This document shows positions 9,171 through 34,691 of a DNA stretch of 34,691 nt, one piece after another. The DNA lies in IMG/VR virus record IMGVR_UViG_3300028048_000053, positions 1-34,691 of that record. One strand, 5' to 3'. Made by a program: the position numbers and the translations under genes. This stretch comes from a virus. The notes below the pieces were generated by a model, which did no database searches, was not told where the DNA came from, and saw only the letters and a program-made list of their open reading frames with translations. Every line of letters starts with the position of its first letter. Position 1 is the stretch's first letter.

Positions 9171-9295
9171 AAAAAAGGTCTTGACAAGCCGCTGAAAGTG
9201 TGCTATAATAAGACCGTAAGTGAGAGAGAGAAAATCTCCACTCCACCGCCTTGCCGCTACTAAAAGGCGTAAGAATCTGGTAGCACCACAAAGGG

Positions 9296-9311
9296 TAGTG
9301 ACCTACCACTA
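9296..9311 (+). promoter_or_regulatory. 5'-UTR hairpin family 2 (stem TAGTG/CACTA, loop ACCTAC) abutting AAAGGAG
   Basis: covarying copies at 13683-13698, 15560-15575, 17185-17200, 17614-17629. Confidence 0.55.
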
Positions 9312-9326
9312 AAGGAGTTGTGTACT

Positions 9327-9695
9327 ATGACTACTTCTAAGATGACCTACAAGACCGCTATCGAGTACGCTATCCGCAACCTGCCTGCCGATGCCCCTGT
9401 CGAGGTGACGGACAAGCTGACCGCCCTTATCACTTCCCTGGAGAAGAAGAGCGGCGCCGAGCGCAAGCCCACCGCCACGCAGGTGGCGAACGAGGGCTAT
9501 AAGGCCGCCATCATGGAGTACCTTTCCGATGTGGGCGAGCCCAAGACCGTGGGCGACATTCTGAAAGAGGTTCCTGCGGTGGCTGGCTTCTCTACCCCCA
9601 AGGTGTCCGCTCTGATGAAACAGCTCACCGAGGGCGGCGCTGTCGAGCGCTTGACTGACAAGCGCCGCACCTACTTCAAGGCGATTGTCGCCTAA
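9327..9695 (+). CDS. winged-helix-like DNA-binding protein (122 aa), paralog of 13714-14100
   Basis: C-terminal ~75 aa nearly identical to the paralog, including at nucleotide level; ORF track. Confidence 0.7.
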   Translation: MTTSKMTYKTAIEYAIRNLPADAPVEVTDKLTALITSLEKKSGAERKPTATQVANEGYKAAIMEYLSDVGEPKTVGDILKEVPAVAGFSTPKVSALMKQLTEGGAVERLTDKRRTYFKAIVA

Positions 9696-9853
9696 CCCCT
9701 GCGGGGGGTGGAGAAATCCACCCCCATTTTTTCCAAGGCGAGTTAGCGGCGGCTAACCGCCCGGGCGATTTAAATGTTGCCTGCGCAACATGAAAAATTC
9801 TTGACTTTTGGTTTCAATGTGGTATAATAAGACCGTGGAAAGGAGTTGATTTT

Positions 9854-10216
9854 TTGGATGAAAAACGCATAGCCCTCTTGATGAAACAGCTTGACATTTC
9901 CAGGGATGAAGCAATCGAAGTCTTGAAAGAGGACAGCGAAATTGACAAGGGCGCAGAACTGTTTGAACTAACCCCCGAACAGAAACAGGTCGAAAAGAAA
10001 ATGCGCCAAGCTGACCGCAAAGTGACTGCCTATAGCTGGAAACCAAGAGAGCGCAAACCCAACGAAACCAAAAGAAAGCTAATTCAAGATTTGGCCTTAA
10101 CCCTGCATCATAATCCTATGGTAGATAGCTGGGAAATCACCAATCAAGAACGGCAAATTGATTTTGAGTGCAACGGCACCAAATATCGTATCATTCTGAG
10201 CGCCCCCCGCAAATAG
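9854..10216 (+). CDS. hypothetical protein (120 aa), paralog of 12613-13014; TTG start; terminates with TAG
   Basis: AGGAG 8 nt before TTG 9854 (the only ATG nearby hits a stop after 4 codons); ends at the same relative point as the paralog, so TAG 10214-10216 acts as a true stop here. Confidence 0.6.
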   Translation: MDEKRIALLMKQLDISRDEAIEVLKEDSEIDKGAELFELTPEQKQVEKKMRQADRKVTAYSWKPRERKPNETKRKLIQDLALTLHHNPMVDSWEITNQERQIDFECNGTKYRIILSAPRK

Positions 10217-10410
10217 GGGGCGCTTTTCATTTTGAATAATTATTCACTTCCTTTGAGCCGCTGGCGCACGGGCGCGTGCCAGCGGTGTTCGGCGCAATCA
10301 GCACTTTCCACAAAAAACGTTGCGAAAATTTGTGCAATTTGCCATCTTGCTTTTTTCCTGAAATGTGCTATACTATAATCACAAAAGGAAAAGAAAAGGA
10401 GATGCTTCAA

Positions 10411-10686
10411 ATGATGTTCAATGATGCTGTGTATGTGGGTCGCGAGTGCCCGTTCTGCGGTGAGTACCACGAGGTACTTGTCAGCGAGGCTGACTTTGCC
10501 GCGTGGCAGGGTGGGGAGTTGGTGCAGGACGCCTTCCCCTATCTCTCCGCTGACGAGAGGGAAATCCTTGTCAGCGGCATCTGTCCCAAGTGTTGGGCAG
10601 AGACCTTTGGCGAGGAGGGAGACGAGGAGGAGGAGTGCTTTGAGCCTGGTCGCCCCTGCGTCAACATGTTTGAGCTGAACCCCTAA
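10411..10686 (+). CDS. Zn-ribbon protein (CPFCG...CPKCW), 91 aa
   Basis: ATG 10411 is 9 nt after AAGGAG; in frame with ORF 10276..10686. Confidence 0.65.
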   Translation: MMFNDAVYVGRECPFCGEYHEVLVSEADFAAWQGGELVQDAFPYLSADEREILVSGICPKCWAETFGEEGDEEEECFEPGRPCVNMFELNP

Positions 10687-10796
10687 TTATGGGGTTTAGT
10701 CGCCCGGGCGCAATTATGTAAACCAAAAAAATCTGAAAAAATTTCAAAAAAGGTATTGACATTTACGCCCCCCTGTGCTATACTATAATTGTTCCA

Positions 10797-11335
10797 AGGG
10801 AGTGGCCATTGACCAAGGAACTGTGGAGGGAAGCCAACATCGGCCCTGCGAGTACCAAATAATGATTGTTGGTGACGGTTAGACGCTTAAGTTGCTATGC
10901 GAACAAACACTTTCTCAAATAGCAGAAAGGGGTTAGAGACAGCAGAGCCACCCTTTTTTAGGCAGTTTTTTCCTGTGGCGTTCAAGGAAAAAATATTCTG
11001 ACTTTTTTAGTGTTCATCTGGTCATTCTTCACCAAACACTGGATTTTTCAAGAGGAAAGAATCTAAAAATAATTGGAAGAAACTGAATACTTTTAGGCAG
11101 TTTTCAATTCAGTCGCTGTGATAGAAAGAAACTCCCCCTTGCGGGGGCGGTGAGGTTAGTAAGGTAAGAGCTAACGGCTTATTGGGTCGAGCCGCTGAAT
11201 ATCAACATCCGCCCCCCAATAAGGGATATTTAAATACCTCTCTACTTTTTGTAGTGCTCCTTTTCTTTCTCTCTTTCTTTCTGTGGCGTGGGTAGGATTT
11301 TCCTACCCTTGCGCCCGGGCGAAAAATTTTTTGCC
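10797..11335 (+). ncRNA. ~540-nt apparently non-coding transcribed region between a consensus promoter (TTGACA 10761-10766) and terminator 11288-11335
   Basis: no ORF with SD; several long-range stems (CTTATTGGG...CCCAATAAG, CCCCC-ttg-CGGGGG); ORF 11283..11471 spans the next promoter and is judged spurious. Confidence 0.3.
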
Positions 11336-11412
11336 CCAATCAAATTTTCCCCTTGACATTTATAAAAAAATATGTTATTATAATAGTACAAAAAGAAAGG
11401 AGATAATAAACA

Positions 11413-11577
11413 ATGACAAACGCTATTTTGATTATCCTCTGCGTGTATTTTGCGGCTTCGGCCCTTGTTGATGCCGCAAAAGCAGACCGCAATCCCTGCT
11501 GGTCTACCTGCCTTGATGTGGTCTTTGACCTGGCTCTGCTGGTGGGCGTGTTTCATTTGATGGAGGTATTTTGCTGA
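11413..11577 (+). CDS. small membrane protein (54 aa)
   Basis: AAAGGAGA SD + ATG 11413; stop TGA overlaps next ATG (TGATG). Confidence 0.55.
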   Translation: MTNAILIILCVYFAASALVDAAKADRNPCWSTCLDVVFDLALLVGVFHLMEVFC

Positions 11578-12056
11578 TGAATACCGCAATTTTGCTTTTT
11601 GTCATTTGCACTCTTGCAAATGTTGTCATTGCGACTATCAAAAGTGTAATGACCATCAAGGGCGGCAAGGTTGCCGCTTCCATCTGGAACGCTCTCAGCT
11701 ATGGCCTTTACTCCTACATTGTGATAATGACCGCAAACGCCGACATTTCCACGCTCGGCAAGGTTTTAATCACCGTAGGCTGTAACTTAATCGGCGTGTT
11801 TTTCGTTAAGTTAGTAGAGGAAAAGATGCGAAAAGATCGCCTGTGGAAAATTGAAATGACAATTTATTCCACCAACGCCGACAAGATGCACCAAGAACTG
11901 GAAAATGCTGGTATCCCCAATAACTATGTAATTGCAGGCCGCCATGCTATTTTTAATTGTTTCTGCGATACTCAAAGTGACAGCGCAAACGCCCTTGCTA
12001 TTGGCAAGACCTACAACGCAAAAACTTTTGCATCAGAAACAAAACTTAATCCCTAA
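11577..12056 (+). CDS. membrane protein with soluble C-terminal domain (159 aa)
   Basis: ORF track 11571..12056; ATG 11577 translationally coupled; 3 hydrophobic segments. Confidence 0.65.
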   Translation: MNTAILLFVICTLANVVIATIKSVMTIKGGKVAASIWNALSYGLYSYIVIMTANADISTLGKVLITVGCNLIGVFFVKLVEEKMRKDRLWKIEMTIYSTNADKMHQELENAGIPNNYVIAGRHAIFNCFCDTQSDSANALAIGKTYNAKTFASETKLNP

Positions 12057-12116
12057 CGGCATTCCCCGCCTCGGCGGGGATGTTGCCCGGGCGCAAAAAA
12101 ATTTTTAAAAAAAGTC

Positions 12117-12145
12117 TTGACAAACTGCGCAAAGTACACTATACT
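12117..12145 (+). promoter_or_regulatory. class I promoter TTGACA-N17-TATACT
   Basis: -35 12117-12122; -10 12140-12145. Confidence 0.65.
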
Positions 12146-12179
12146 GTCTACAGAAACCAAGAGAAAAGGAGATACCAAA

Positions 12180-12494
12180 ATGAAAAAGGGTTTTGTTTCC
12201 ACGATGCGCAAGGGATTCCACATGACCTTCCCCAACGGCCTGACCGTTTCCGTCCAGTGGGGTGCTGGCAACTACTGCGACAACCACTTCCCCAAGGATA
12301 TGGATTTCACCTTCTCCAAGGACGCCGAAAGCGATACTGCCGAGGTTGCTGTCATCGATCCGCAGGGTGAGTTCCTTGACCCTCAGCGGTTTTTTGACTA
12401 TGAAATCAGATCTGACGGCATGGTGGCTGGCTGGCTCGACCCCTCGCAGGTTGTTGAACTGTTGGCGAATGCGCGCGACTGGCCTAACATCTAA
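12180..12494 (+). CDS. hypothetical protein (104 aa)
   Basis: AAAAGGAGA SD; ATG 12180 in frame with ORF 12117..12494. Confidence 0.7.
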   Translation: MKKGFVSTMRKGFHMTFPNGLTVSVQWGAGNYCDNHFPKDMDFTFSKDAESDTAEVAVIDPQGEFLDPQRFFDYEIRSDGMVAGWLDPSQVVELLANARDWPNI

Positions 12495-12612
12495 GGCCAG
12501 TCTTTCGCCCGGGCACGCATAAACATTCACTGAAACTGAATAAAAATTCTTCTTGACATTTGTTTATAGGTGTGCTATACTATGTATAGTCCAGGAGAAA
12601 GGAGAGGTAGTA

Positions 12613-13014
12613 ATGGCAAGACAGTCCGCTAAAGAGCGTGAAGCGCAGATTGAGCGCACGATGAAAGCCCTTGAAGTCACAAGGGAAGAAGCCCTTGAAA
12701 TCCTCGCAGAAGATGACGAGATTGACAAGGGCGCAGATCTTCACCCCTTGACCCCCGAACAGGAAAAAGTTGTTAAAAAGATGCGGCAGGCTGACCGCAA
12801 GCCCACGGTCTACAACTGGCAGAAAAAGCGTGAGCGTAAGCCCAACGAACTCAAAAGAGAAATCATCGACGATTTGTTCGGTTTCTTTTGCGAGAACTGG
12901 CCAGAAGTGGCAAAGAATGGAAACATCATCAACCCCGAAAGACAGATTGACTTTGAGCTTGGAGGGGAGAGCTTTTCCATCACTCTGACCCAGCACCGCA
13001 AACCCAAGGCGTAA
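12613..13014 (+). CDS. hypothetical protein (133 aa), paralog of 9854-10216
   Basis: shared block EIDKGA.L..LTPEQ..V.KKMRQADRK......W...RERKPNE.KR.II and a C-terminal ERQIDFE motif. Confidence 0.7.
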   Translation: MARQSAKEREAQIERTMKALEVTREEALEILAEDDEIDKGADLHPLTPEQEKVVKKMRQADRKPTVYNWQKKRERKPNELKREIIDDLFGFFCENWPEVAKNGNIINPERQIDFELGGESFSITLTQHRKPKA

Positions 13015-13134
13015 GGCGTAAGGGGGGAACATTTGTTCCCCTATCTGCGCCCGGGCGGCCGCAAACTGCACAATTTTAATACTCTGTTTTTGTGCAAAAC
13101 ACCATCTTGCTTTTTTAAGATAGTGTGCTATAAT

Positions 13135-13215
13135 AATAATTGTCAAGGGGCTGTAAACCGCGGGGCATCCAAATAAGTCCTGTACTGCGTGGTAAGAAAT
13201 TTCAAAAAGTTTTTT
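13135..13215 (+). ncRNA. candidate sRNA or leader between promoter (TTGCTT 13100-13105 / TATAAT 13123-13128) and tRNA-Lys
   Basis: no ORF; AT hairpin TTTCAAAAA-g-TTTTTGAAA at the 3' end. Confidence 0.3.
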
Positions 13216-13239
13216 TTTGAAAATCCCCTTGACAAACTT

Positions 13240-13314
13240 GCGGCCATGGTGTAATTGGTAACACAGTAGACTTTTAATCTATCATTCGGGGTTCAAGTCC
13301 CCGTGGTCGCACCA
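13240..13314 (+). tRNA. tRNA-Lys (anticodon UUU), CCA encoded
   Basis: manual cloverleaf: acceptor GCGGCCA/TGGTCGC, D stem GTGT/ACAC, anticodon stem GTAGA/TCTAT with loop CTTTTAA, T stem CGGGG/CCCCG with loop TTCAAGT. Confidence 0.8.
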
Positions 13315-13495
13315 ATTCCTTTCCTTTTTATTATCTCTCTCTTTCTTACAAAGAACCCTGCTAAAGCGATTTAGTGGGGTTTCTTTGTAGAATCGCCCGG
13401 GCGACTGGCAAAATGCACAAAACAATTTCTAAAATTCTATCTCATTTTGTGCATTTTGCCTATTGTAATCTGTGCGCCCTTGTGCTATACTATAA

Positions 13496-13600
13496 TCGTT
13501 CCAAGGGGGAAGGCAAACAGCGTTAGGACACTTCTTCAAAGGGGGAAGGCAAACAGTGACAGGGCACTTCCCCCCTCGGACGCCGAAAAAAATTCCAAAA
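13496..13600 (+). ncRNA. two tandem copies of the CCAAGGGGGAAGGCAAACAG sRNA-like motif from promoter TTGCCT 13455-13460 / TATACT 13478-13483
   Basis: sequence family shared with 9092-9170. Confidence 0.3.
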
Positions 13601-13713
13601 AACTCTTGACAAGCCGCTTTGAGTGTGCTATAATAATGGTGTCAATGAGGGAAGCCCCTCTTGAACATAAAAAAAATATGGGTAGCGACCTACCGCTAAA
13701 GGAGTTGTGTACT

Positions 13714-14100
13714 ATGACTAACACCAAGATGACCTACAGCAAGGCTATTGCCGCCTGTATCGACCTGCTGACCACTGGCGAGACTTCTGAGAATCCCACC
13801 GAAATCGTGGAGAAGCTGACCGCCCTCTCCGAGAGCCTTGCGAAGAAGTCTGGGGCTGAGCGCAAGCCGACTGCGACCCAGGTTGCCAACGAGGGCTATA
13901 AGGCGGAGATTCTCGCCTATCTGCGTGATGTGGCCGAGCCTAAGACTGTGGGCGACATTCTCAAGGAAGTCCCCGCCGTGGCTGGTTTCTCCACTCCCAA
14001 GGTATCTGCCCTCATGAAGCAGTTGGTTGACGAGGGTAACGGCCCCGTCGAGCGTCTGACCGACAAGCGGCGCACCTACTTCCGCATCAAGGCGGAGTAA
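13714..14100 (+). CDS. winged-helix-like DNA-binding protein (128 aa), paralog of 9327-9695
   Basis: family-2 leader; ATG 13714 in frame with ORF 13447..14100. Confidence 0.7.
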   Translation: MTNTKMTYSKAIAACIDLLTTGETSENPTEIVEKLTALSESLAKKSGAERKPTATQVANEGYKAEILAYLRDVAEPKTVGDILKEVPAVAGFSTPKVSALMKQLVDEGNGPVERLTDKRRTYFRIKAE

Positions 14101-14240
14101 GCCCCCTGCGCCCATCCCCTCCCCTGCAATAGTGGGGGAGGGGCGCGCCCGGGCGAAAAAAATTTTTTTTAAAAACCCCTTGACAAACCTCTATAAATGT
14201 GCTATACTTTAGATGTTCCAAGAGGAAAGGAGAGAGTGTA

Positions 14241-14480
14241 ATGGAAAAGAAGTTTAACATGGTAGTGACCCTTACCAATGGTAAAGTCCTGCGCCACTAC
14301 GGACTTTCCTTGCGCATGGCGGCAACTATGAAATTGCACTATCAAGAGAAGTACCCTAACACCCTTGAAGAAATCGAAACCGTTTACGCAGGGACGAACA
14401 AAAGAGCTACGGCGCTTTGCTATTTCATTGAAGATGGAGAAAACGATCCTATCGCTTTCTATGAGCGTTACGGCTGGTAA
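14241..14480 (+). CDS. hypothetical protein (79 aa)
   Basis: class I promoter 14183-14215; AAAGGAGAG SD; in frame with ORF 14199..14480. Confidence 0.7.
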   Translation: MEKKFNMVVTLTNGKVLRHYGLSLRMAATMKLHYQEKYPNTLEEIETVYAGTNKRATALCYFIEDGENDPIAFYERYGW

Positions 14481-14494
14481 AAGGAGGAAATAAA

Positions 14495-14740
14495 ATGGCT
14501 ATTTCTATTAAGCGTGAAAAGAACGAGCGCGGCGTGACGGTCGGCTCTCTCAAAGTGGGCGACACTTTCATGTATGACAACCGTATCGGCGTTATCGTTG
14601 ACCGCAATGGTCACTGTTTTCCCATGGATTTTGCAACCTGTGCCACCTTTCACAAACATCCCTGGACATCCGAAGCACTTCTTCCGCAGGAGATTGTTCT
14701 GCCTATCGAGGTCGAAATGACTTGCAAGGTCGTGGGCTAA
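14495..14740 (+). CDS. hypothetical protein (81 aa)
   Basis: AAAGGAGGA SD then ATG 14495; ORF track. Confidence 0.75.
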   Translation: MAISIKREKNERGVTVGSLKVGDTFMYDNRIGVIVDRNGHCFPMDFATCATFHKHPWTSEALLPQEIVLPIEVEMTCKVVG

Positions 14741-14857
14741 GCCTTTCCCCGCTTCGGCGGGGAAATCGCCCGGGCAAAAAACTTTTTTCAAAAACCTATT
14801 GACATTTTCCTAAGTATGTGCTATACTATAATCACAAAAGGAAAGGAGATAATCAAA

Positions 14858-15130
14858 ATGACCTATTCCATCCAGATTTATCGCATGAATGCTGGCTCTT
14901 GGGAAACCTTTGTTCAGTTTACCCCCGTCGTCTTTGACGAAATGATCGAAGCTGGCAAGGCTATGTTCGTCAATCCTCTACTGTCTGCGGAGAATGTTGC
15001 TATCGTTGATGACACAACTGGCGAAGTTCTCTGGGATGCCTGTTCCGATGATGAGGACTGTGAGCCTGCGGACATTGATGATGATTGCGGCTTTGACCCC
15101 TACGAGGGCTGTTTCACCTACGACTGCTGA
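14858..15130 (+). CDS. hypothetical acidic, Cys-containing protein (90 aa)
   Basis: AAAGGAGA SD; ATG 14858 in frame with ORF 14816..15130. Confidence 0.7.
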   Translation: MTYSIQIYRMNAGSWETFVQFTPVVFDEMIEAGKAMFVNPLLSAENVAIVDDTTGEVLWDACSDDEDCEPADIDDDCGFDPYEGCFTYDC

Positions 15131-15244
15131 CCCCCTACAAGGGGGTCAGTTTGCCCGGGCGAAAAAATTTTTAAAAAGGTCTTGACAAACTCTCAGTAAT
15201 GTGTTATACTGTATTCAGAAATCAAAGGAAAGAGGGAATAAACC

Positions 15245-15457
15245 ATGGTGTGTCCTAAGTGCGGCCCTGGGGCAGCTGTAATGTCCGATGAGTGTATTGA
15301 TGTTGAGGAGTACGACGATGATAACATTGCCGTAACCTACGAGGGGACTTGTCTGTGGTGCAAACGCAAATACCAATGGACGGAAATCTATAAATATAGC
15401 CGTATCAAAAATATTATTGAAATTGGTACAGCTCCGCAGGAGGAAGAAGAGAACTAA
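15245..15457 (+). CDS. Zn-ribbon protein (CPKCG...CLWCK), 70 aa
   Basis: ORF track; class I promoter 15185-15215. Confidence 0.7.
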   Translation: MVCPKCGPGAAVMSDECIDVEEYDDDNIAVTYEGTCLWCKRKYQWTEIYKYSRIKNIIEIGTAPQEEEEN

Positions 15458-15589
15458 CCCCCCTCTTTTTCTTCCCCCTGCGCCCGGGCGCAAAAATTTT
15501 TTTTCAAAACCCCCTTGACAACCCTCCAAGAGTGTGTTATAATAAAGGCACATTGAGGGTGGTGGCCTAACACCAAAGGAGAATTTGTT

Positions 15590-16195
15590 ATGAACAAGAG
15601 TGACTTTTTCGAGCGTGAAATCCAGTTCATTGAGGACATTGACCTCCAAGACTTTGTTCGCTTTTTCTTCAATGAAAGATGCGGCGACTGGTTTTGGAAG
15701 TCTGGGGCTTCCAGTTCTGGGAAATATCATCCCCAGTTCACCAAGGGCGAGGGTGGACTTGTGCGCCATACTAAAGCCGTTGTGTGGGTCTGTGAGGAAC
15801 TTCTGCGCATGAGTTCCTACGCCTACATGAAAGACATTTACAAGGACTACGCAAGGGTCGCCTGCCTGCTTCACGATACACGCAAGTATGGCGGCGGGGA
15901 TGAAGAGGATAAAAGTTATTATCCACGTCATGGTGAAGCCGCCGCAAATGATGTTGGTGTGGCGTGGCGAGAGTTTTTCCACTGTCATTCCTGCCCCGAA
16001 TTGCTTTTGATGGCTATTCACTCCCACATGGGACAGTGGACGGAAAACAGAGAGGACAGACCCTTTACCAACATTGACCGCCTGGTACATCTGTCGGACT
16101 ACATCGCAAGCCGTCCTTTCTGGGACATTCCCGACATTACCACCGAATACAACGAAGCCAATGCAAAGATGATTGAAGATTCTCTGCCTTTCTAA
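15590..16195 (+). CDS. HD-domain phosphohydrolase (201 aa)
   Basis: H..H...LLHDTRKYG...H motif arrangement typical of the HD superfamily; family-2 leader; ORF track. Confidence 0.6.
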   Translation: MNKSDFFEREIQFIEDIDLQDFVRFFFNERCGDWFWKSGASSSGKYHPQFTKGEGGLVRHTKAVVWVCEELLRMSSYAYMKDIYKDYARVACLLHDTRKYGGGDEEDKSYYPRHGEAAANDVGVAWREFFHCHSCPELLLMAIHSHMGQWTENREDRPFTNIDRLVHLSDYIASRPFWDIPDITTEYNEANAKMIEDSLPF

Positions 16196-16286
16196 TCCCC
16201 CTCCCCTCTGTCCCAGTGACAGAGGGGAAATCGCCCGGGCGAAAATTTCCTCTTGACAAGAGGCCAAAAGTATGCTATACTGTATT

Positions 16287-16400
16287 TACAATTCACGGAG
16301 AAATCCGTTTTACATACCTGCGGACTGCCGAACAGGCTTTTTCCAAAATTTCTCATGGGCCTGCATAGGATAACATGACTTTCTGCGGGAATTTTTGAAA
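16287..16400 (+). ncRNA. candidate sRNA cassette (promoter TTGACA 16255-16260 / TATACT 16278-16283; no ORF)
   Basis: only very short ORFs; hairpins CGGAGAAATCCG and CCTGCGGACTGCCGAACAGG. Confidence 0.25.
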
Positions 16401-16466
16401 ATAATACTTGACAAACAAGCACAAGTATGTTATAATAAAGGCACAAAAAGGAAAGGAGATAATAAA

Positions 16467-16694
16467 ATGCTCGATCACATTGGCGGCATCCCCGATGGAC
16501 ACATTGTAGAGTTTCCGCACTCTGCGCGCACTTTCATGAAGGTCTGCACAAGAGATGGGCAGGGCGGAGTTGTTGACATCACTACAGGTGAGCTGATTAT
16601 GATAAGCGACCTGCCGCGATACGGTATTGATGTATGGTGCTCTGAGCACTACGGAGAAAGGGCTACTATTCAGTACGAAGTAGAGGACGATTGA
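16467..16694 (+). CDS. hypothetical protein (75 aa)
   Basis: AAAGGAGA SD; ATG 16467 in frame with ORF 16395..16694. Confidence 0.7.
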   Translation: MLDHIGGIPDGHIVEFPHSARTFMKVCTRDGQGGVVDITTGELIMISDLPRYGIDVWCSEHYGERATIQYEVEDD

Positions 16695-16793
16695 CCGTCC
16701 TCTTGGCCCGGGCGAAAAATTTTTTTAAAAACCTCTTGACAAGTGATTAGCTTTGTGCTATAATGAAGTCACAAAAGGAAAGGAGATACAAAA

Positions 16794-17075
16794 ATGAGAG
16801 CAACAGGTATTGTAAGACGCATTGATGACTTCGGCAGAGTTGTCATTCCGAGGGAAATTCGCAAAACTCTCAACATTCGCGAGGGCGACCCCCTCGAATT
16901 CTTCACCGACCCCGACGAGAGGGCTGTGTGCTTCAAGCCCTATCTGCCCTACTCCGAGCCGTGGCGTATGCTCGAAGATGCCGCAGAGACCATGCGTGAC
17001 AGCGAGGACTTTCACGAGTTCGCCGCCGATGTTTACGCCCTTGCGCGTAAGATTCGGAAATCTGCGCAGGGCTGA
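16794..17075 (+). CDS. AbrB/SpoVT/MazE-like regulator (93 aa), paralog of 1707-2000
   Basis: MRATGIVRRIDDFGRVVIPREIRKTLNIREGDPLEF matches the swapped-hairpin pattern. Confidence 0.7.
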   Translation: MRATGIVRRIDDFGRVVIPREIRKTLNIREGDPLEFFTDPDERAVCFKPYLPYSEPWRMLEDAAETMRDSEDFHEFAADVYALARKIRKSAQG

Positions 17076-17216
17076 TAAATACCCCCGCCTTGGCGGGGGA
17101 AATCGCCCGGGCGCAAAAGTTTTTTCAAAAAGGGCGTTGACAAAGGTATAATCTTGTGCTATAATATCAATGTAAACAAAAGGGTTGCGACCTAACGCAA
17201 GAAAGGAATTGATACT

Positions 17217-17510
17217 ATGAATTTCTGGATTGTTATTTTGACCATCTACATTTTCTTTACTATTACCCTGTTCTTTGTGTCTGCCGCTCAGGCGTTCGAA
17301 GTTCGGCGGCGTATCTACGCAAAAGTTGGTAAGAATTACTATGACTCTTTTTCCAAGCGAAGCATTGTTGAAAAAATTGTTAAACTTTTAACCAGCTTTT
17401 TCTTGTCTGCCATTCCTATTCTTAACTTTTTTGTAACTTTTCATGTGATTATTCATGCTGAGGAATTAGTAAATAGTAGTGTGCAGAAATGGCTTGCAGA
17501 ACATAAATAA
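17217..17510 (+). CDS. membrane protein (97 aa)
   Basis: family-2 leader; ORF track; two long hydrophobic segments. Confidence 0.65.
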   Translation: MNFWIVILTIYIFFTITLFFVSAAQAFEVRRRIYAKVGKNYYDSFSKRSIVEKIVKLLTSFFLSAIPILNFFVTFHVIIHAEELVNSSVQKWLAEHK

Positions 17511-17643
17511 GGGTAAGGGGGCTTAATGTCCCCTGCTGCCCGGGCGCTAAAAAAATCAAAAAAAGGTATTGACAAGCGGCGCAATCTGTGCTATACTATA
17601 CACAGTTAAGGGGTGGCGGCCAAACGCTAAAGGAGATAAAAAA

Positions 17644-17808
17644 ATGTTTTACGAACTGAGAGATGCGATTTTCAATCGTCTTGCCTGCTGGCTGATGAAG
17701 CACTGTCACTGTTGGTCGATGGTGTTCTATACCGCCTGCCGCAGATACTACCCTGCCAATGTAAAATGTATGTATGAATCATGGGCTGAGGAAATGGGGG
17801 TGAAGTGA
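17644..17808 (+). CDS. small Cys/His-rich protein (54 aa)
   Basis: family-2 leader + AAAGGAGA SD; in frame with ORF 17569..17808. Confidence 0.6.
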   Translation: MFYELRDAIFNRLACWLMKHCHCWSMVFYTACRRYYPANVKCMYESWAEEMGVK

Positions 17809-18023
17809 TGTTCAGAGTTTGGTTTGATGATTTGGAAGTAGCCATTGCGGCGTTCCGCAAGGTCGTGATGGACGAACTGTTCGTTTCTATTAGCGGCAAT
17901 CTCTACGGCGATTTCATTTTTGAGATTTCCGAGGGTATCAAGTACACCGTGAAGCACAACGATTTCAGCGTGTGGCGCAATTTCGGGGATTGGAGAAAAC
18001 CCGATTGGAGGGAAATCAAGTAA
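17808..18023 (+). CDS. hypothetical protein (71 aa), translationally coupled (TGATG)
   Basis: ORF track 17805..18023. Confidence 0.6.
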   Translation: MFRVWFDDLEVAIAAFRKVVMDELFVSISGNLYGDFIFEISEGIKYTVKHNDFSVWRNFGDWRKPDWREIK

Positions 18024-18145
18024 TGCCATCCCTCTATTATACCTATTCTCATTGCTCGTTGTCGCCGCTTCAATTTATTATCGCATTTGCTATTGGTGCG
18101 GCGATTGGTGCGGGAATTATTTTCTACTTTACGAATAAAGGGTGA
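18023..18145 (+). CDS. possible single-TM peptide (40 aa), coupled via TAATG
   Basis: ATG overlaps the upstream stop; hydrophobic FIIAFAIGAAIGAGIIFYF; ends inside a 24-bp palindrome terminator. Confidence 0.35.
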   Translation: MPSLYYTYSHCSLSPLQFIIAFAIGAAIGAGIIFYFTNKG

Positions 18146-18161
18146 ATAATTATTCACCCTT
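18138..18161. repeat. perfect 24-bp palindrome AAGGGTGAATAATTATTCACCCTT
   Basis: seen directly; shorter GAATAATTATTC copy at 10234-10245. Confidence 0.7.
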
Positions 18162-18256
18162 TATTCATTGCCCGGGCGCAAAAATTTTTTTTCAAAAACC
18201 CCTTGACAAGTTGCTGTAAATGTGCTATACTACATTCAGAAAGTGAGGGATGCAAG

Positions 18257-18433
18257 ATGCGTGATTTTAAATGGACTGACGAACTGTGGTGCGTTGTAAA
18301 AAACGATGGTAGCTTTGCGGGTGCTCCCTGTCTGAGTTGGGAGGAGGCGCGAGAACTTCAGGCGCAGTACGAAAACAGTCAAATGTATCTGTTGAAACCT
18401 GTCGGATGGATTTCTAAGGAGGATAAAAAATGA
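18257..18433 (+). CDS. hypothetical protein (58 aa)
   Basis: class I promoter 18208-18237; in frame with ORF 18203..18433. Confidence 0.6.
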   Translation: MRDFKWTDELWCVVKNDGSFAGAPCLSWEEARELQAQYENSQMYLLKPVGWISKEDKK

Positions 18434-18789
18434 AGCTGACTAAAAAGTTTTTCTGCCCTGTGAACGGATGGGACTGCCCTTACTGGAAAGAGGACGGTTT
18501 CTGCTCCATGGTCGATAATGGGGATGACCCCGTTATGGAGTGCGACGATGCCGCCACTTTCTGGGAACCCGACGAGGATTACTTCGTGTGGGCTGACGAG
18601 GACGGCGCAACCTACGATGTGGAATGGCTCTTGGAGCTTGGCTATCACTTCGTCAATGGTGAGCCTGTGAAAGCTCCCTCTTCCGACTTCATCAAGGCGA
18701 CTTTGGAAAAAGTTCTCGAACATTGGGATGAAGAGGTCAGTTTTCCTCCCGACTTTGATGAAATGGGGTCAAATGGGTTTAGGGGGTAA
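18430..18789 (+). CDS. hypothetical acidic Cys-containing protein (119 aa)
   Basis: GGAGGATAAAAAATG; ORF track; terminator 18790-18825. Confidence 0.75.
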   Translation: MKLTKKFFCPVNGWDCPYWKEDGFCSMVDNGDDPVMECDDAATFWEPDEDYFVWADEDGATYDVEWLLELGYHFVNGEPVKAPSSDFIKATLEKVLEHWDEEVSFPPDFDEMGSNGFRG

Positions 18790-19282
18790 ATAAGAGGGGG
18801 GTAAATGCCCCCTCTACTTTCGCCCGGGCAACTGGCTTCAAGGCTTTAAATGACTAAAGTGAACCGGCCGCTGACAGGGGCAGCGAGCCGAACTCTCGCC
18901 CAAACACACCATATGCAAATTTTTTGCTCAATCTAGCAGGTCTTAGACCGCCCGGGCATTTTCCCGAAACATGCGGGGAGGAGCGCAGCGACTCCCATAT
19001 GGCCCGCCTAACGGTTGAAAGTGAGGGGCACCCACCCAGCAAAAACTTTCTCGCTGCGCGAGAAACCGGCCTCTGGGGCCGTTTTTTAGCCCCTTGCGGG
19101 CTTGATTTTTATAAAAAATTATGTTATAATATAAAAAAACGGCTGCTTTTTACCAAAATTTACCATTTTTTGTTGTTTTTTATAAAAAAATATGTTATAA
19201 TGTAAAAAAAAGACTAAAAATGGGCGGCCCCAAGGGCCGTTTTCTCTTTTTTCGCCAAAATTTCAGAGCATTATATCGGAGT

Positions 19283-20197: not shown

Positions 20198-20350
20198 GAA
20201 TTTTAGTATTTTTATATAGAATTTTTAGTATTTTTATATAGAATTTTTAGCATTTTTATTAACGAATTTTAGCATTTCTATTTAAAATGTTTAGCATTTT
20301 TATATAGAGTTTTAGTATTCTTTATATAGTATTTTAATAGTTCTATACAA
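20198..20350. repeat. about 7 tandem copies of a 22-bp AT-rich unit GAATTTTTAGTATTTTTATATA (iteron-like)
   Basis: seen directly. Confidence 0.7.
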
Positions 20351-20450: not shown

Positions 20451-21029
20451 CCCCGAAGATTAGTATTTATACTCCACCGTTCTTCCGGCATAATTATATT
20501 TTGGCTTAAAAACCCTAATCAGCCCTAATTCCATACTCTATACATCACGCTTTGTTATCTTACTATTACTCTTTATCTTGGAAACATCAATCAGTTTTTT
20601 AAATTCAATTTTATTTTCTTTATTTATCTAATTATAAAAAATTAATTCTTTACTACATGTTTCTATACCCCTTTTATGTTCTTCCCATCTTTCCTCAAAA
20701 TCTCTCATTGTCATACCTACATATACTAATTCATCATTTTCATAAATACCATAGACTCCATAAGATATAGTCTTTTCCTATTTAATATGATATTTTTTCT
20801 CATAAATCTTTACTTCTTGCTATAAAGCATAATAAAAATTATCTATTTCTTTCTATGCTATCGGAATTAAATGTTTTAAAATTATCTAAATATAATGATT
20901 TAAATCTCCTTTACTCTTTTTCGTTTGAGTTTGCTTAAAAAAATAACTAACAATATTCTAAAAAGAATCTAAATCTATAAACTCCCAGTATTTACCACAA
21001 GACAATATATAACCTGGCAGATTACTTCT

Positions 21030-21227
21030 CTATTCTTTAGTTAAAAAACAAACATAAGAATCATGACTACAACTATCTAATTTATAATTACTATCTAATT
21101 TTGGCATCTGCTTAATTATATATTGGTATACAATATACATATTTTTTCGATTCAAACTTTTATGCTCACATTTCATACATTTTTCAAATTCTTCTTGTGA
21201 AACCAACTTTATAACCTCCTCATACAT
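21030..21227 (-). CDS. possible small Cys/His protein (65 aa)
   Basis: C-terminal part of minus ORF 21030..21548; upstream part of that ORF is the low-complexity repeat array. Confidence 0.3.
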   Translation of the reverse strand: MYEEVIKLVSQEEFEKCMKCEHKSLNRKNMYIVYQYIIKQMPKLDSNYKLDSCSHDSYVCFLTKE

Positions 21228-21239
21228 TACCGAGCATCC

Positions 21240-21510
21240 TAAAAATACAAAACTTGTTTTGTATTTTTTTGTACAAAAACTTGTTTTTTGTACAAAAAGT
21301 TGTAAAAATACAACATTTTTGTTGTATTGTAAGACTAAAGATAGCTTATACAAAAAATACAAAAATACAAAAATTCTTGTATCGTAGAGTCTAAAAACTA
21401 CAATTTTCGTACAAAAAACATAAGCATTTATACAAAAATACATAATAGATAAATACAATAAAAATACAATCGTACAATTTTCATACAAAAATTCGTACAA
21501 AAAATCTATA
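21240..21510. repeat. array of GTACAAAAA / TACAAAAATAC direct repeats interleaved with palindromes
   Basis: palindromes TACAAAAC-ttg-TTTTGTA, GTACAAAAA-cttg-TTTTTTGTAC, AATACAACA-ttttt-GTTGTATT read directly. Confidence 0.65.
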
Positions 21511-21511
21511 A

Positions 21512-21886
21512 TCAAAATATAGCATTGGGGTCCTTGCGTTGTACCCATCCTTTTTTATGCTGTATAGTATTCAACTTTACTCCAAAATAATCGGCTATCT
21601 CTTGCGCGCTCATATTATTTCTAGCCATTTTGTATACTTCGGCATCGGTAACTTTGAGACGAACTTTGCCTCCGTTGCGCTTTTCTTCATACTTAGCAAT
21701 ACTGACATCTATACGCCCCTTCAATAAATTTACATAAGAGTTTATACTGGGGTCATCCGTATATTTCTATTCTAAACGACAGCCATATCTGATTAAATCA
21801 GCAATGATTTTGTCCTAACTTTCCACTGGCAACTAATCAATAGCTTCTAACCAATCACTGTGTACAATAAAAGTATTATCAGCCAT
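21512..21886 (-). CDS. HTH protein (124 codons; possible ArpU/RinA-like sigma-region-4-type regulator) with three in-frame TAG codons
   Basis: ATG 21886-21884 preceded by AAGGGGGA SD; in-frame TAG at 21833-35, 21815-17, 21767-69 (plus coordinates); no TAA/TGA for 124 codons in AT-rich DNA; C-terminal ORF 21512..21724 alone has no start or SD. Confidence 0.55.
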
Positions 21887-21890
21887 TCTA

Positions 21891-22070
21891 TTAGTCCCCC
21901 TTGGCGCCAAAAATTAAGTCTAATTTTTTTTCTAATTCTGGCGTATCTTCAAAAACCCAACACCAATACTATGGCTAAAATGGATTCTTTATAGTTTCAA
22001 CGGGATATACTCCCATTTTCACCAACTTTAGCATTATTTTGCGAGAATAAATAATTCGATTCTTTAGCAT
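21891..22070 (-). CDS. small protein (59 codons) with two in-frame TAG codons
   Basis: ATAGGAGTG SD 9 nt before ATG 22070; TAG at plus 21975-77 and 21969-71; stop TAA 21893-21891 abuts the SD of the next gene. Confidence 0.45.
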
Positions 22071-22086: not shown

Positions 22087-22221
22087 TTACTTAGATTCTT
22101 GTCTTTGTATAAAATATTTTATCGCTTTTCTAACAACTTGCGACATAGATAAATCATGAGCAGAAGCATACTTCTCAATCCATGCTTTGTCCTCTTCTGA
22201 AATTCTTATAGAAATAAGCAA
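22087..22221 (-). CDS. ribbon-helix-helix (CopG/Arc-like) DNA-binding protein (~44 aa)
   Basis: ISIRISEEDKAWIEKYASAHDLSMSQVVRKAIKYF matches the beta-strand plus two-helix RHH pattern; TTG 22221 (or GTG 22230) start; first gene of the minus operon. Confidence 0.55.
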   Translation of the reverse strand: MLISIRISEEDKAWIEKYASAHDLSMSQVVRKAIKYFIQRQESK

Positions 22222-22257: not shown

Positions 22258-22277
22258 TTGTAATACATTGTAATACA
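22258..22277. repeat. tandem direct repeat TTGTAATACA x2 in divergent promoter region
   Basis: seen directly, immediately upstream (minus sense) of the RHH gene. Confidence 0.6.
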
Positions 22278-22342
22278 TTGTCCAACACTTTTAACATTTT
22301 AATATAATTTTCTGTCGTTAAAGACCGTAAGTACTAAATCCT

Positions 22343-28415: not shown

Positions 28416-29192
28416 ATGAAATATAGTATTTCTGGTAGATAGCCCAAAGAATTGTTACAAAAAGCGGATGAAATTTTCATTGAGTACAGAGATAAAGATG
28501 TACTTTTTGATTATGTAGAGTTATATCCCGATAAAAAAATTGTGATGTTTATTCCAAAAGATACAGAAGTAGATTGGGATTTACTTAAAAGTTTTAATGA
28601 AAAACTCAATCTTACCTTGGAGATAGAACAAATTAAAGATGCAGAACTGGTTAATTTTCATTGGTTTTGGCACTTTCCGGTAACTACATATTTTGAATTA
28701 GATGGTATTCTTGCGCTTAATACATCGGAAGTTTTAATTGGTGGGCCATTGTTCTTTGACTTAGAGCGAGTAAAAGAGTTGTGCAAGGATATTGAAATAA
28801 GAGCCGTACCAAATGTTGCCTTTGACGCATATATTCCAAGAACAAATGGCATATGTGGCACTTATATCCGTCCAGAAGATGTGGTAACATATGAACCATA
28901 CATTAACACTCTAGTTTTTAAATATGAAGATCTAAAAGAAGAAAGAATGTTATTCCAAGTTTACAAAGAGGATCAGAAGTGGCCAGGTAATCTATATTTT
29001 TTAATTAAAAATCTCAACAAGCATGTAGATAATAGAGGGTTTGAAGAAGATTTCGCAAGCACTCGCCTCAACTGCCGCCAGACCTGCTGCCGCAATCATA
29101 TATGCCATTTTTGTGAATCTTACATTACTTTTATAAACACCATAGATAAAAATAAAAACTATCTAAAGGAACAATTAAATGACGATAAGTAA
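28416..29192 (+). CDS. hypothetical Cys-containing protein (258 codons) whose codon 9 is TAG
   Basis: class II promoter with AAGGAG-N8-ATG 28416 in the standard position; TAG 28440-28442 in frame; ORF 28452..29192 continues in the same frame with no SD of its own. Confidence 0.55.
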
Positions 29193-31118: not shown

Positions 31119-32012
31119 ATGCCAAGATATAAAGATGAAACTGGCAATAAGTATGGAAAATTAACCGTTCTATACCCTACCGATAAGAGAAATTCCAAAA
31201 GAGAGATTTTTTGGCATTGTAAATGTGACTGCGGAAATGAGTGTGATGTTTTGGGTAGATTACTGCGAAACGGGAATACTCGTTCTTGTGGTTGTCTAAG
31301 GATTGGCTCAAAAACATTGGATGAAATCGGTAATAGATATGGAAAATTAACCGTAATTTCGTAGGCCAAGGATAAAATTAATAATCATGTTGCGTGGAAT
31401 TGTTTGTGCGATTGCGGAAATAATATTATAGTATCTGGCACAAAATTACGCTCTTAGGAAATCACGGCTTGTCCAACTTGCCGCCAATTGCAAAAGCCAA
31501 AATTGACAGATGTGAATGAACAATATGGTGATCTTACTGTTTTGGAATCTGCAGGACGAGATAAGTATAGAAGATTATTGTGGAAATGTCGATGCTCTTG
31601 CGGAAATATTTGTATTGTTGCCGGCATAGATTTAAGGTCTGGACAAAAAACTAGCTGCGGCTGTAAAAAAACCCTATCTAAAGGGGCAGATAAAATAAGA
31701 CAAATTTTACAAGAAAATAATGTTCATTTTACCTAGGAAAAGACTTTTGATTCGTGTAGATTTCCGGATACCAACTAGCTCGCTCGTTTTGACTTTTATC
31801 TTCCCGAACAAAATGTTTTAATTGAGTATGATGGAAACCAGCACTTTTTTTATACAAATCATCATTGGGATACCAAAGAACATTTTGAATATACAAAAAG
31901 ACATGATGAATATAAAAATCAATGGTGTAAAGAAAACAATATAAAATTAATTAGAATTCCGTATTACGATATAAAGCAAATATCTTATGAAAAGATATTG
32001 GCTCTATTCTAA
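31119..32012 (+). CDS. homing-endonuclease-like protein: three YG.LTV..W.C.C.CGN...SCGC Zn-finger repeats + C-terminal Vsr/DUF559-like PD-(D/E)XK domain (FDFYLP...IEYDG.QH); four in-frame TAG codons
   Basis: single frame maintained 31119-32012 (ORFs 31119..31364 and 31488..31736 share the frame); TAG at 31362-64, 31455-57, 31734-36, 31776-78; no TAA/TGA until 32010. Confidence 0.5.
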
Positions 32013-32729: not shown

Positions 32730-32816
32730 GGGTCGGTATCCCGTAGCAGGTAGCGGTTCTGGCTGTAAATCAGGTGTCTAGCGACTCGGTTGGTTCGATC
32801 CCAACCCGGCCCACCA
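32730..32816 (+). tRNA. tRNA-Tyr (GUA), class II long variable arm, CCA encoded
   Basis: manual fold: acceptor GGGTCGG/CCGGCCC, anticodon loop CTGTAAA, variable stem GTC/GAC, T arm GTTGG-TTCGATC-CCAAC. Confidence 0.7.
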
Positions 32817-32909
32817 ATCGCCCTATTGGCAGACTAAAACAGAATCTATGCAATAGTATTGGCGCTGTGTCTACTGATATGGCGTCACTGTATGGTGAAG
32901 GAGATTATT

Positions 32910-33095
32910 ATGCATACCTTTCATTCTCAGGATAAATACAATTTCCATCACAATGGAGATTTTTCCGGTGACGTGATAATCACTAAGGATGATGACACTA
33001 ATTTTGAAATTGAAATTAGTAGTCAAGCTCTTCTTGAATATGCTCGTTATGTAATTGACTCTGTTCTTACAGAAAAAATTGAAGACATTATGTAA
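32910..33095 (+). CDS. hypothetical protein (61 aa) between tRNA-Tyr and tRNA-His
   Basis: GAAGGAGATTATTATG; in frame with ORF 32859..33095. Confidence 0.55.
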   Translation: MHTFHSQDKYNFHHNGDFSGDVIITKDDDTNFEIEISSQALLEYARYVIDSVLTEKIEDIM

Positions 33096-33096
33096 T

Positions 33097-33174
33097 GGTG
33101 GGAGTAGCTTAGTTGGCTAAAGCACCAGATTGTGGCTCTGGGGACCGCGGGTTCAAGACCCGTCTCTCACCCCA
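33097..33174 (+). tRNA. tRNA-His (GUG) with encoded G-1 pairing to C73, CCA encoded
   Basis: manual fold: acceptor GTGGGAG/CTCTCAC, anticodon stem CCAGA/TCTGG with loop TTGTGGC, T arm GCGGG-TTCAAGA-CCCGT. Confidence 0.7.
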
Positions 33175-33215
33175 TTTATGCCTCCTTAGCTCAGCTGGTC
33201 AGAGCACGCGGCTGT

Positions 33216-33682
33216 TTGCCTGACCTTACATTCTTGATGAAAAAGAAAAATGAATAGTAAGCAAAAAGGCAATATTACTGAATTAGAAACAATGTTAGCG
33301 TTTTTAAAACATGGTTTTAATGTTTTAACTCCTTATGGAGATTGTGAAAGATATGATTTTGTAGTAGACGCTAACAGAAAGTTTTATCGAATTCAGAGTA
33401 AAACAGCAAGCACAGAAGACGATGGAGCTTCGTTTAAGTTTTCTTGTAGGAGCTCAAATCGTCAAGATGGTAGAATAGTCCATCACCAATATACAAAAGA
33501 TGAAATTGACTATTTCGTAACTTCTTTTGAAGGAAAATGTTATTTAATTCCAGTTGAAGAATGTGGTTGTGATAAACGACTTCGTCTTTTTCCTACTAAA
33601 AATGGACAAACAAGAGGAATAAGCTGGGCAAAAGATTATGAAATGGAGGAAGTAATCAAGAATTGGTAAGCTGATGTGCAAG
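33216..33682 (+). mobile_element. 467-bp insertion in the tRNA-Asp anticodon loop carrying an endonuclease-like ORF; group-I-intron-like boundaries (5' exon ends in T, insertion ends in G)
   Basis: boundaries inferred from tRNA cloverleaf; only ~47 nt of the insertion lie outside the ORF, so the intron class is unresolved. Confidence 0.5.
33250..33669 (+). CDS. putative homing endonuclease of the PD-(D/E)XK / Hjc-like fold (139 aa) encoded inside the tRNA-Asp insertion
   Basis: pattern E11..LK.GF.V..P.GD..RYDFVVD....FYRIQSK resembles small restriction-endonuclease-fold nucleases; ORF track. Confidence 0.45.
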   Translation: MNSKQKGNITELETMLAFLKHGFNVLTPYGDCERYDFVVDANRKFYRIQSKTASTEDDGASFKFSCRSSNRQDGRIVHHQYTKDEIDYFVTSFEGKCYLIPVEECGCDKRLRLFPTKNGQTRGISWAKDYEMEEVIKNW

Positions 33683-33906
33683 CAACCGCGGTGTCGTAGG
33701 TTCGAATCCTACAGGAGGCGCCAGGCCCGTGGATCCGAGGGCACAGTATCGGACAAAATACGCTGGCATATCGTAGAGAGTGCGCAATCTCAAATATGCG
33801 ATACCGCTATTCGTTGGGGCGGGATATAAATGCAGCAACGACAGGTCGCTTGAACCTGATTGATCCTGTCGGCGGTACGGGAGAAGAAAAGCATCCGCTG
33901 TTTTAT

Positions 33907-33982
33907 AGGGGATTGGTGTAGTAGGGAGCATCTGCGCCTCCAAAGCGTTAGAGAGAGGGTCCGAGTCCTTCATCCCCTGCCA
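33907..33982 (+). tRNA. possible tRNA-Trp (CCA), weak (several G-U pairs, T-loop TCCGAGT)
   Basis: acceptor AGGGGAT/ATCCCCT perfect, discriminator G, CCA encoded, anticodon loop CTCCAAA; D and T arms non-canonical. Confidence 0.35.
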
Positions 33983-34256
33983 ATAGTGAGTCGTTTAAGC
34001 AAGACTGCGGCCATGGTAACGCAATGTTGGGTAGCGACCGGCACCAACCTCACTATTATATGCCTCGGTAGTTTAGCAAGTAAAACGGTGGACACATATT
34101 TTTATGTGGCTGCAAGTGGATGGAGCGTGGCCGTCTCGGGGCACCAACGGCAAGGTGGCGTAGCGTGAGCTACAAGTGCGAATGACTGAACGCACTAAAA
34201 ACTGGCAATGGGCAAGCCTTCTGTATAGTAAAACCAAGAAGTCTATTTTTTAATAT

Positions 34257-34331
34257 GCCGGGGTCATATAGTGGTTAGTATGCGGAACTGATAATTCCGT
34301 CATGGCAGTCCGACTCTGCCCCCTGGCACCA
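34257..34331 (+). tRNA. tRNA-Ile (GAU), CCA encoded
   Basis: acceptor GCCGGGG/CCCTGGC, anticodon stem CGGAA/TTCCG with loop CTGATAA, T arm GGCAG-TCCGACT-CTGCC. Confidence 0.7.
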
Positions 34332-34413
34332 TAAATCTCAGCTGAGATAGGGATAGCTCTGCGTTTGGAGTAGCATTTCAGTCGTCGGGGGCGGAGCGCT
34401 GAGATTTTTATAT

Positions 34414-34640: not shown

Positions 34641-34691
34641 TTTGGTGTCTTGATTTTTATAAAAAAATATAATATAATAATTATAGAAAAG

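Follow-up and report, generated by a model that had tools for sequence, protein, structure and literature searches.

Phages in which TAG is recoded to glutamine (Gln) and which infect hosts using the standard code were reportedly described by Ivanova et al. in 2014. In gut phages, TAG-to-Gln recoding has been reported along with suppressor tRNAs encoded by the phage; early genes of these phages keep the standard code, and late genes are recoded (Borges et al., bioRxiv 10.1101/2021.08.26.457843). The same study gives the frequency of a CUA suppressor tRNA as ~35–40% of code-15 phages, describes a large “Sapphire” clade with 26% of genes recoded, and shows preferential recoding of an intron homing endonuclease in Agate phages. 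Code 15 has been confirmed by proteomics (Peters et al. 2022, PMC9523058), and phAss-1 is listed among TAG-to-Gln gut phages that infect standard-code hosts (PMC10607447). The present analysis concerns a module of minus-strand genes in IMG/VR virus record IMGVR_UViG_3300028048_000053, whose reading frames, where they are interrupted, are interrupted by TAG codons only. The window, i.e. the whole stretch of DNA analyzed, comprises positions 1 to 34,691 of that record (34,691 nt). It is highly probable that a phage tRNA allows TAG in these genes to be decoded as an amino acid, and probable that the amino acid inserted is Gln.

The window makes up the first 34.7 kb of the ~172-kb genome of an uncultivated gut phage, which in all probability uses genetic code 15 (TAG = Gln) in some of its genes. 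Its sequence is identical to that of ENA metagenome contig ERZ27252073:k141_3465 (171,985 bp; window coordinate = record coordinate + 6), and public gene calls on k141_3465 already read through TAG. The analysis covers this genome up to window-equivalent 63.6 kb.

The module lies in a low-GC island at ~20.0–22.3 kb, where the GC content is 29% versus 42–48% in both flanks. The island is the sole minus-strand coding block within the window. A sequence-only reading of this region had put its AT content at ~65%, but the measured value is ~70%. The genes are as follows (SD, Shine-Dalgarno sequence; RHH, ribbon-helix-helix; aa, amino acids):

22087..22221, minus strand: g1, first gene of the module, RHH protein; start at TTG 22221 (SD AAAGGA 10 nt upstream) or GTG 22230.
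21891..22070, minus strand: g2, 59 aa; ATG 22070, TAA 21893–21891; TAG at codons 32 (21977–75) and 34 (21971–69).
21512..21886, minus strand: g3, 124 aa/codons; ATG 21886, TGA 21514–21512; TAG at codons 18 (21835–33), 24 (21817–15) and 40 (21769–67).
20460..21227, minus strand: g4, 255 aa; ATG 21227 to TAA; eight TAGs (codons 66, 90, 114, 125, 136, 150, 200 and 230) and no other in-frame stop.

Re-translation of the minus strand from 22400 to 19900, with TAG, TAA and TGA marked apart, gives exactly the g2 and g3 frames that the sequence-only reading had proposed, and its count of five in-frame TAGs with no TAA or TGA is correct (two TAGs in g2, three in g3). The SD sequences AAGGGGGA and TAGGAGTG are found where they had been placed; that of g3 sits within the final codons of g2. 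The first gene had been described as an RHH repressor-like protein that needs no read-through, and g1 indeed has no TAG and is identified as an RHH protein by Pfam. The C-terminal piece of g3 at 21512..21724, said to have no ATG, GTG or SD of its own, lacks an SD, but a TTG start is present in the mechanical open reading frame (ORF) list. The extent of the module had been underestimated: the TAGs of g2 and g3 are real, but g4 with its eight TAGs had been overlooked.

The two alternative frames contain 7 and 10 TAA/TGA codons in the case of g3, and 6 and 2 in the case of g2. Among 2000 shuffles of the island, a stretch of 124 or more codons without TAA/TGA arises in 22, and one of 255 or more codons in none. 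Codon use in the island is 13 TAG versus 12 CAA plus CAG. TAG constitutes 3% of the codons, and its density is highest here.

The g3 sequence displays a Pfam DUF6291 domain at residues 5–72 (36.6 bits, cutoff 27.2), which covers all three TAG positions. It is followed at the C-terminal end by a helix-turn-helix (HTH) similar to LuxR/sigma-70 region 4. The g3 product is predicted to be a DNA-binding protein. In a fold search the C-terminal HTH alone matches known structures (E>0.7), with no structural match for the N-terminal DUF6291 region. A database search shows 11 full-length homologs of g3 with chain lengths of 123–132 aa. The DNA of six homologs was compared at the codon level, and the proportions of nonsynonymous (pN) and synonymous (pS) differences were calculated against five orthologs. 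These are 0.23–0.38 for pN versus 0.66–0.85 for pS, which is saturated; the ratio of nonsynonymous to synonymous substitution rates (dN/dS) is ~0.2–0.25 where computable. Saturated pS together with low pN indicates purifying selection across the whole frame, i.e. before, between and after the TAGs. Orthologs at 55–64% identity keep the frame and often have the same TAGs. The sequence-only reading had allowed for fragmented pseudogenes with unrelated downstream frames; instead, the homologs are single and intact, the DUF6291 domain runs across the TAGs and the frame is under selection.

The dN/dS values for g2 are 0.09–0.46, and its orthologs in the related loci L003, L035 and L036 have TAGs at other positions, with K, Q or E at the TAG positions of the window. 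The g1 sequence matches Pfam DUF6290 (35.6 bits, cutoff 27) and RHH_1 (20.6 bits, cutoff 20.5). Its orthologs in L035 and L036 have a TAG at the position of the window's Q in the sequence DLSMSQVV; g1 of the window is TAG-free. The g4 sequence has a conserved C-terminal domain that is GIY-YIG-like (motifs GVYGIY, YVGMT and RWEEH) and a variable N-terminal half. Profile scores for g4 are E=0.044 with the I-TevI catalytic domain and E=0.0019 with a PHROG endonuclease family; Pfam GIY-YIG is weak on g4 allelic variants and gives no match at E≤0.1 for the window copy. The gene is present in some relatives (L035) and missing in others (L003).

The difference in GC content between the island and its flanks, and its opposite orientation, speak for an artefact, either a sequencing or assembly error or a chimeric contig carrying DNA of an organism with another code. 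However, identical g3 sequences with the same three TAGs occur in at least 17 contigs from at least eight unrelated sequencing runs. Since the same TAGs recur in so many independent assemblies, an assembly artefact, one of the objections foreseen in the sequence-only reading, is ruled out. None of the eight sampled populations shows a TAA, TGA or frameshift in the module frames. Relatives at 55–64% identity share the g1-g2-g3 order, the orientation opposite to the flanks and the same flanking genes, thus the module is an old part of the phage lineage and not a recent insertion. In addition, TAG-containing genes are interspersed along 64 kb of the genome. Artefact or chimera has next to no probability as an explanation of the TAGs.

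The identity of the residue at TAG can be approached by comparison with the homologs. The second TAG of g3 is at the invariant Q of the motif QDKIIA. This codon is TAG in the window, L003 and L035, and CAA or CAG in L036, L037 and eight IMG/VR homologs (L024–L031). The g3 sequence of L003 has a fourth TAG, at the position of the window's CAA in the GWKQR motif, and in L035 the conserved Q residues of AQEIA and TIQH are both replaced by TAG. TAG and CAR are exchanged at four invariant or near-invariant Q positions in all.

A wider tally of orthologs, 54 kb of this genome versus 15 related loci, gives 96 pairs of TAG versus a canonical codon. The residues opposite TAG are Q (14), K (13), E (10), N (8), S (2) and L (2). 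Q is enriched ~4-fold over its background frequency. Under BLOSUM62, Q has the highest log-likelihood; its margin is 12.9 to K, 13.5 to E and 24 to S. These margins are indicative only because the 96 pairs are not phylogenetically independent.

A tRNA that could read TAG was sought in the window and beyond it:

32730..34641, plus strand: start of the phage tRNA cluster (Tyr, His, Trp, Ile-GAU, Ile-UAU, Lys), which runs on past the window end.
Window-equivalent 47560–47653 (L022 14223–14316): CUA tRNA, predicted by ARAGORN; Rfam tRNA 53.3 bits, threshold 29.

The seven tRNAs of the window include none with a CUA anticodon, in agreement with the sequence-only reading. Of the genome-wide search which that reading had proposed, the part up to window-equivalent 63.6 kb does find one, on the same contig and 12.9 kb past the window end. 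Relatives, located by way of a neighbouring marker gene, have one or two CUA tRNAs of 74–76 nt in the same, syntenic cluster. At least one of these looks to be derived from tRNA-Gln(CUG).

The CUA tRNA of this genome is 94 nt in length, of which the extra arm (CCATAGCCCCCTGAAGGAGCTTATG) takes up 25 nt. Its acceptor end shows a G1.U72 pair and G73, and the CCA is encoded. Upstream of the gene, at a distance of ~110–150 nt, is an element of the second promoter class described below. The same 94-nt tRNA is present in three other phage contigs (L032–L034). The copies there display compensatory changes in the acceptor and T stems and a conserved extra arm, which argues that the 94-nt tRNA is a functional, conserved gene. 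L032–L034 each also carry a CUA tRNA of normal length, ~430 nt upstream of the long-arm one. The literature open to search holds no mention of a 25-nt extra arm on a suppressor tRNA. The 94-nt tRNA is most likely charged with Gln.

Decoding of TAG as another residue (Ser, Lys or Glu), or ambiguous decoding, appears unlikely. Ser would agree with the type-II-like long extra arm and the G73 of the sole CUA tRNA found in this genome. Lys and Glu would agree with the near equal frequency of K, E and Q opposite TAG in the ortholog alignments, and the g2 TAGs align with K, E and KK in relatives. However, K and E commonly substitute for Q and are separated from TAG by a single first-base change, and it is Q that shows both the enrichment over background and the best likelihood. 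The four Q positions at which TAG and CAA/CAG alternate also favor Gln over these residues. In L032–L034 the long-arm tRNAs have U1-A72, G2-C71, G3-C70 and G73, which is the acceptor identity set of E. coli tRNA-Gln.

Pyrrolysine was considered separately; ARAGORN labels any CUA tRNA “Pyl”. A tRNA-Pyl has a short D loop, a variable loop of 3 nt and an anticodon stem of 6 bp, and pyrrolysine decoding goes with pylS and pylBCD genes. This reading was rejected, as the tRNA here is normal in its D arm, has an anticodon stem of 5 bp and bears the 25-nt extra arm, there are no pyl genes among the called genes of the 64 kb, and the alignments favor Gln.

The proposal that TAG is a sense codon is therefore supported by intact conserved frames, by the equivalence of TAG and Gln in alignments and by a CUA tRNA in the same contig. 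It had been made for the genes of one operon. It holds for these genes but is not operon-specific, as TAG is used as a sense codon throughout the part of the genome read outside of the early region, e.g. in homing endonucleases and tail genes. The early region has the following features:

1..19100, plus strand: early region, ~40 small genes with near-consensus promoters and GCCCGGGC terminators.
9854..10216, plus strand: early gene ending at TAG; the TAG is within an intrinsic terminator hairpin (GCGCCCCCCGCAAATAGGGGGCGCTTTT).

On the plus strand of positions 1–19100, an extended -10 promoter close to consensus, TTGACA-N17-TGnTATAMT, recurs ~35 times. Most copies are preceded by the GCCCGGGC hairpin and T-run terminator, and each drives one or two very small genes. 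The arrangement is strikingly regular and of the “host-takeover” type. No credible early gene contains an in-frame TAG. The TAG that ends the 9854–10216 gene is a genuine stop; a paralog of this gene (12613–13014) ends three residues later. Host-type sigma-70 promoters and the early TAG stop are indirect hints of a host that uses the standard code.

A second promoter-like class, AT-rich and with the sequence TTGATTTTTTATAAAAAATAATATATAATATATATAGAAAG, is found from 19 kb on, with ~12 copies on the plus strand of 19100–34691 (e.g. 23703–23744, 25873–25914, 30498–30539, 32673–32714 and 34649–34690). These class-2 elements stand in front of blocks of tRNAs and of the larger genes.

Reassignment of TGA or TAA over the whole window was rejected, since no single or double reassignment gives long ORFs in 1–20 kb. 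An apparent 1550-codon “TAG-only” ORF was likewise discarded, as it resolves into a series of small early genes whose promoters are repeated. Other paralog pairs besides 9854–10216/12613–13014 are 9327–9695/13714–14100 and 3422–3631/4972–5181, and the early region contains repeats of 105–234 nt (families D8, D16 and D20). The paralogs and repeats point to a history of segmental duplication.

Past the early region, TAG is found in the following genes in addition to those of the module:

28416..29192, plus strand: 258-aa gene with a class-2 promoter upstream and an ATG with AAGGAG as SD; one TAG, at codon 9 (28440–28442).
31119..32012, plus strand: homing-endonuclease-like gene, 297 aa, four TAGs; PHROG 374 (E=2e-44), PHROG 559 and PHROG 9084.
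31119–32012, 40980–41708, 43338–44021, 48878–49528, 50267–50926 and 52146–53117: homing-endonuclease-like genes, 3–7 TAGs each.

The structural genes reached within the region read are tail genes. A tail protein (PHROG 5302, E=4e-59) has four TAGs and a tail-fibre-like protein has six. The number of in-frame TAA/TGA codons is zero in the TAG-bearing module, homing-endonuclease and tail genes. Housekeeping-type genes of the same region (genes for a 387-aa and a 560-aa protein, a Thg1-like gene and a DUF2828/VWA gene) have either no TAG or one.

Distribution of TAG among these genes bears on a further explanation, namely that TAG is mostly a stop, and that g2, g3 and g4 are made in trace amounts by leaky read-through or are incipient pseudogenes. 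A homing endonuclease and DNA-binding regulators are required in small amounts only, the density of TAG peaks in the module, and TAG does work as a stop in one early gene. The tail structural proteins, however, are needed in bulk and bear 4–6 TAGs. There is purifying selection downstream of every TAG in the module frames, the sampled populations are uniformly without other interruptions, and the phage encodes a dedicated CUA tRNA. Leaky read-through or gene decay is thus considered very improbable as the origin of these frames, and decoding of TAG as an amino acid is retained.

The DUF2828/VWA gene (L022 16257–18709, window-equivalent 49594–52046) is split into parts of 147 aa and 371 aa. The two parts are separated by a small ORF and by a homing endonuclease of the GIY-YIG/NUMOD3 type, which has three TAGs. 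The split is probably due to an intron or to insertion of a free-standing endonuclease.

The published stage-switch model is the best-supported reading of this genome, with the temporal switch itself inferred. Under this model the ~35 strong host-type promoters would drive the early genes, which would be translated under the standard code of the host. Early genes are without TAG and one ends at a TAG stop, hence they are translatable in an unmodified host. The phage would then express its own CUA tRNA from the large tRNA cluster. With this tRNA present, ribosomes would no longer terminate at TAG but would incorporate an amino acid there, most likely Gln. Full-length g2, g3 and g4, the homing endonucleases (at least six) and the tail proteins would be possible only after the suppressor has appeared.

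Several points count against this model and against the assignment of Gln. The sole CUA tRNA found in this genome is atypical in its length, extra arm, G1.U72 pair and G73. Seryl-tRNA synthetase, too, recognises a long extra arm together with G73, thus Gln is no more than the probable amino acid of this tRNA. As to the temporal model in this module, relatives carry TAG in g1 too, distant g3 homologs are without any TAG, and the module's putative promoter is of a type distinct from both repeated classes. Also, the region read amounts to ~64 kb of the 172-kb genome.

The possibility that g1 is kept TAG-free so that it can be produced ahead of g2 and g3 was considered, and was rejected as a general rule in view of the TAG in g1 of L035 and L036.

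In three lineages the three g3 TAGs persist although synonymous sites are saturated, a hint that the codons themselves may be selected. L036, however, has lost all three g3 TAGs and distant homologs have none, thus codon selection can be drawn from this only weakly. A broader proposal, that TAG is not just a synonymous Gln codon spread by drift but a selected translational gate on selfish nucleases and the DNA-binding module, and that it is opened by an undescribed long-arm class of suppressor, is speculative and on balance doubtful. The 25-nt extra arm might change the synthetase that charges the tRNA, or might shield it from host or phage tRNA nucleases.

The non-coding features of the module are:

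22258..22294, minus strand: putative module promoter, TTAAAA-16-TACAAT, a consensus match; overlaps a 10-bp direct repeat, TGTATTACAA (x2.4).
21228..21511, no strand assigned: spacer between g3 and g4, AT-rich and non-coding, with dense short repeats of the TTTTGTAC/ATACAAAA type.
20198..20347, no strand assigned: 22-bp tandem repeat, ~7 copies of GAATTTTAGTATTTTTATATA, bordering the low-GC island on its downstream side.

The TGTATTACAA repeat is a candidate operator for the RHH protein. A repeat-rich spacer similar to 21228..21511 is also present after g3 in relatives. The 22-bp tandem array and the field of short repeats stand on either side of g4, and these repeats may be iterons, an origin or binding sites of g3. 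In this phage clade the DNA-binding module is conserved, low in GC and divergently transcribed, with g4 as an optional, nuclease-like member. The RHH and HTH proteins and the repeats suggest that it may be a regulatory or an origin-associated unit.

Alleles of g4 in the sampled populations (loci L039–L046) are of two types, 255 aa with eight TAGs and 237 aa with 2–3 TAGs. The C-terminal end is GIY-YIG-like in both types; the N-terminal and middle parts differ. In L045 the TAA stop of g4 is changed to TAG, which gives a nine-residue extension. In L003, a relative at 64% identity, a gene at 8736–9308 adjoins the RHH module upstream. It encodes a 190-aa membrane protein with a match to Pfam Form_Nir_trans, has six in-frame TAGs and is absent from the window.

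Further observations concern the tRNA cluster. The tRNA-Leu(UAA) gene (L022 14372–14954, window-equivalent ~47709–48291) is split between U34 and A35 by a ~494-nt group I intron, which is the same site as that of the cyanobacterial and plastid tRNA-Leu intron. The match to Rfam Intron_gpI is 46.1 bits (E=8.5e-10), slightly under the gathering score. The split gene was missed by ARAGORN, and its 3′ exon was located by hand further downstream; the tRNA-Leu(UAA) gene of relatives is unsplit. The tRNA-Ile(UAU) gene (34414–34489, plus strand) adjoins tRNA-Ile(GAU) and is also found in the relatives L003, L008 and L013. Bacterial genomes do not commonly encode a UAU anticodon for AUA. A gene for a PDDEXK_5-family nuclease (33250–33669, plus strand) is inside the cluster, and a similar protein is encoded beside tRNAs in the relative L007 (10401–10805).

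Among 50,697 GenBank phage records, megablast with 15 kb of this genome and tblastn with the 560-aa protein give no match, and tblastn with g3 gives a single weak match (MT835900.1, 28.8% identity, E=3e-5). The phage is thus not among the cultured or deposited genomes. Many relatives are present in IMG/VR and in ENA metagenomes. The genome extends the code-15 phages by an uncultivated ~172-kb lineage that has no relative among the deposited phage genomes. Translation table 11 mis-calls it, as g3, g4, several homing endonucleases and tail genes are fragmented, and table 15 must therefore be used.

With respect to known protein families, g1 and g3 exceed the curated Pfam cutoffs of DUF6290 and DUF6291, both of which are families of unknown function with no experimentally studied homolog. 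Unlike the DUF6291 family, g3 has the additional C-terminal LuxR/sigma-70 region-4-like HTH.

Classical amber suppressors include the supE tRNA-Gln CUA, the supF tRNA-Tyr CUA and the T4 psu tRNAs. The present system is similar in that a CUA tRNA would compete with RF1 at UAG, and in that the weak 1-72 pair and G73 resemble tRNA-Gln. It differs in that suppression appears to be the normal and required decoding for dozens of essential or conserved genes and not the rescue of a mutation.

The closest similarity is to the code-15 phages. As in these, TAG is the only in-frame stop codon and aligns with Gln, the tRNA cluster includes a CUA tRNA, early genes can be read with the standard code, tail genes are recoded, and only a minority of genes is recoded. 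One genome here shows both uses of TAG, as a stop in an early gene and, in all probability, as Gln elsewhere. Two differences are apparent. In the part of the genome read, TAG is densest in a small RHH/HTH module and in homing endonucleases, and the suppressor tRNA has a conserved 25-nt extra arm. Both are leads to the way in which the code switch is established and to what it controls. The findings do not overturn current understanding: code-15 recoding is well documented, and the long-arm suppressor tRNA is the one unusual element here.

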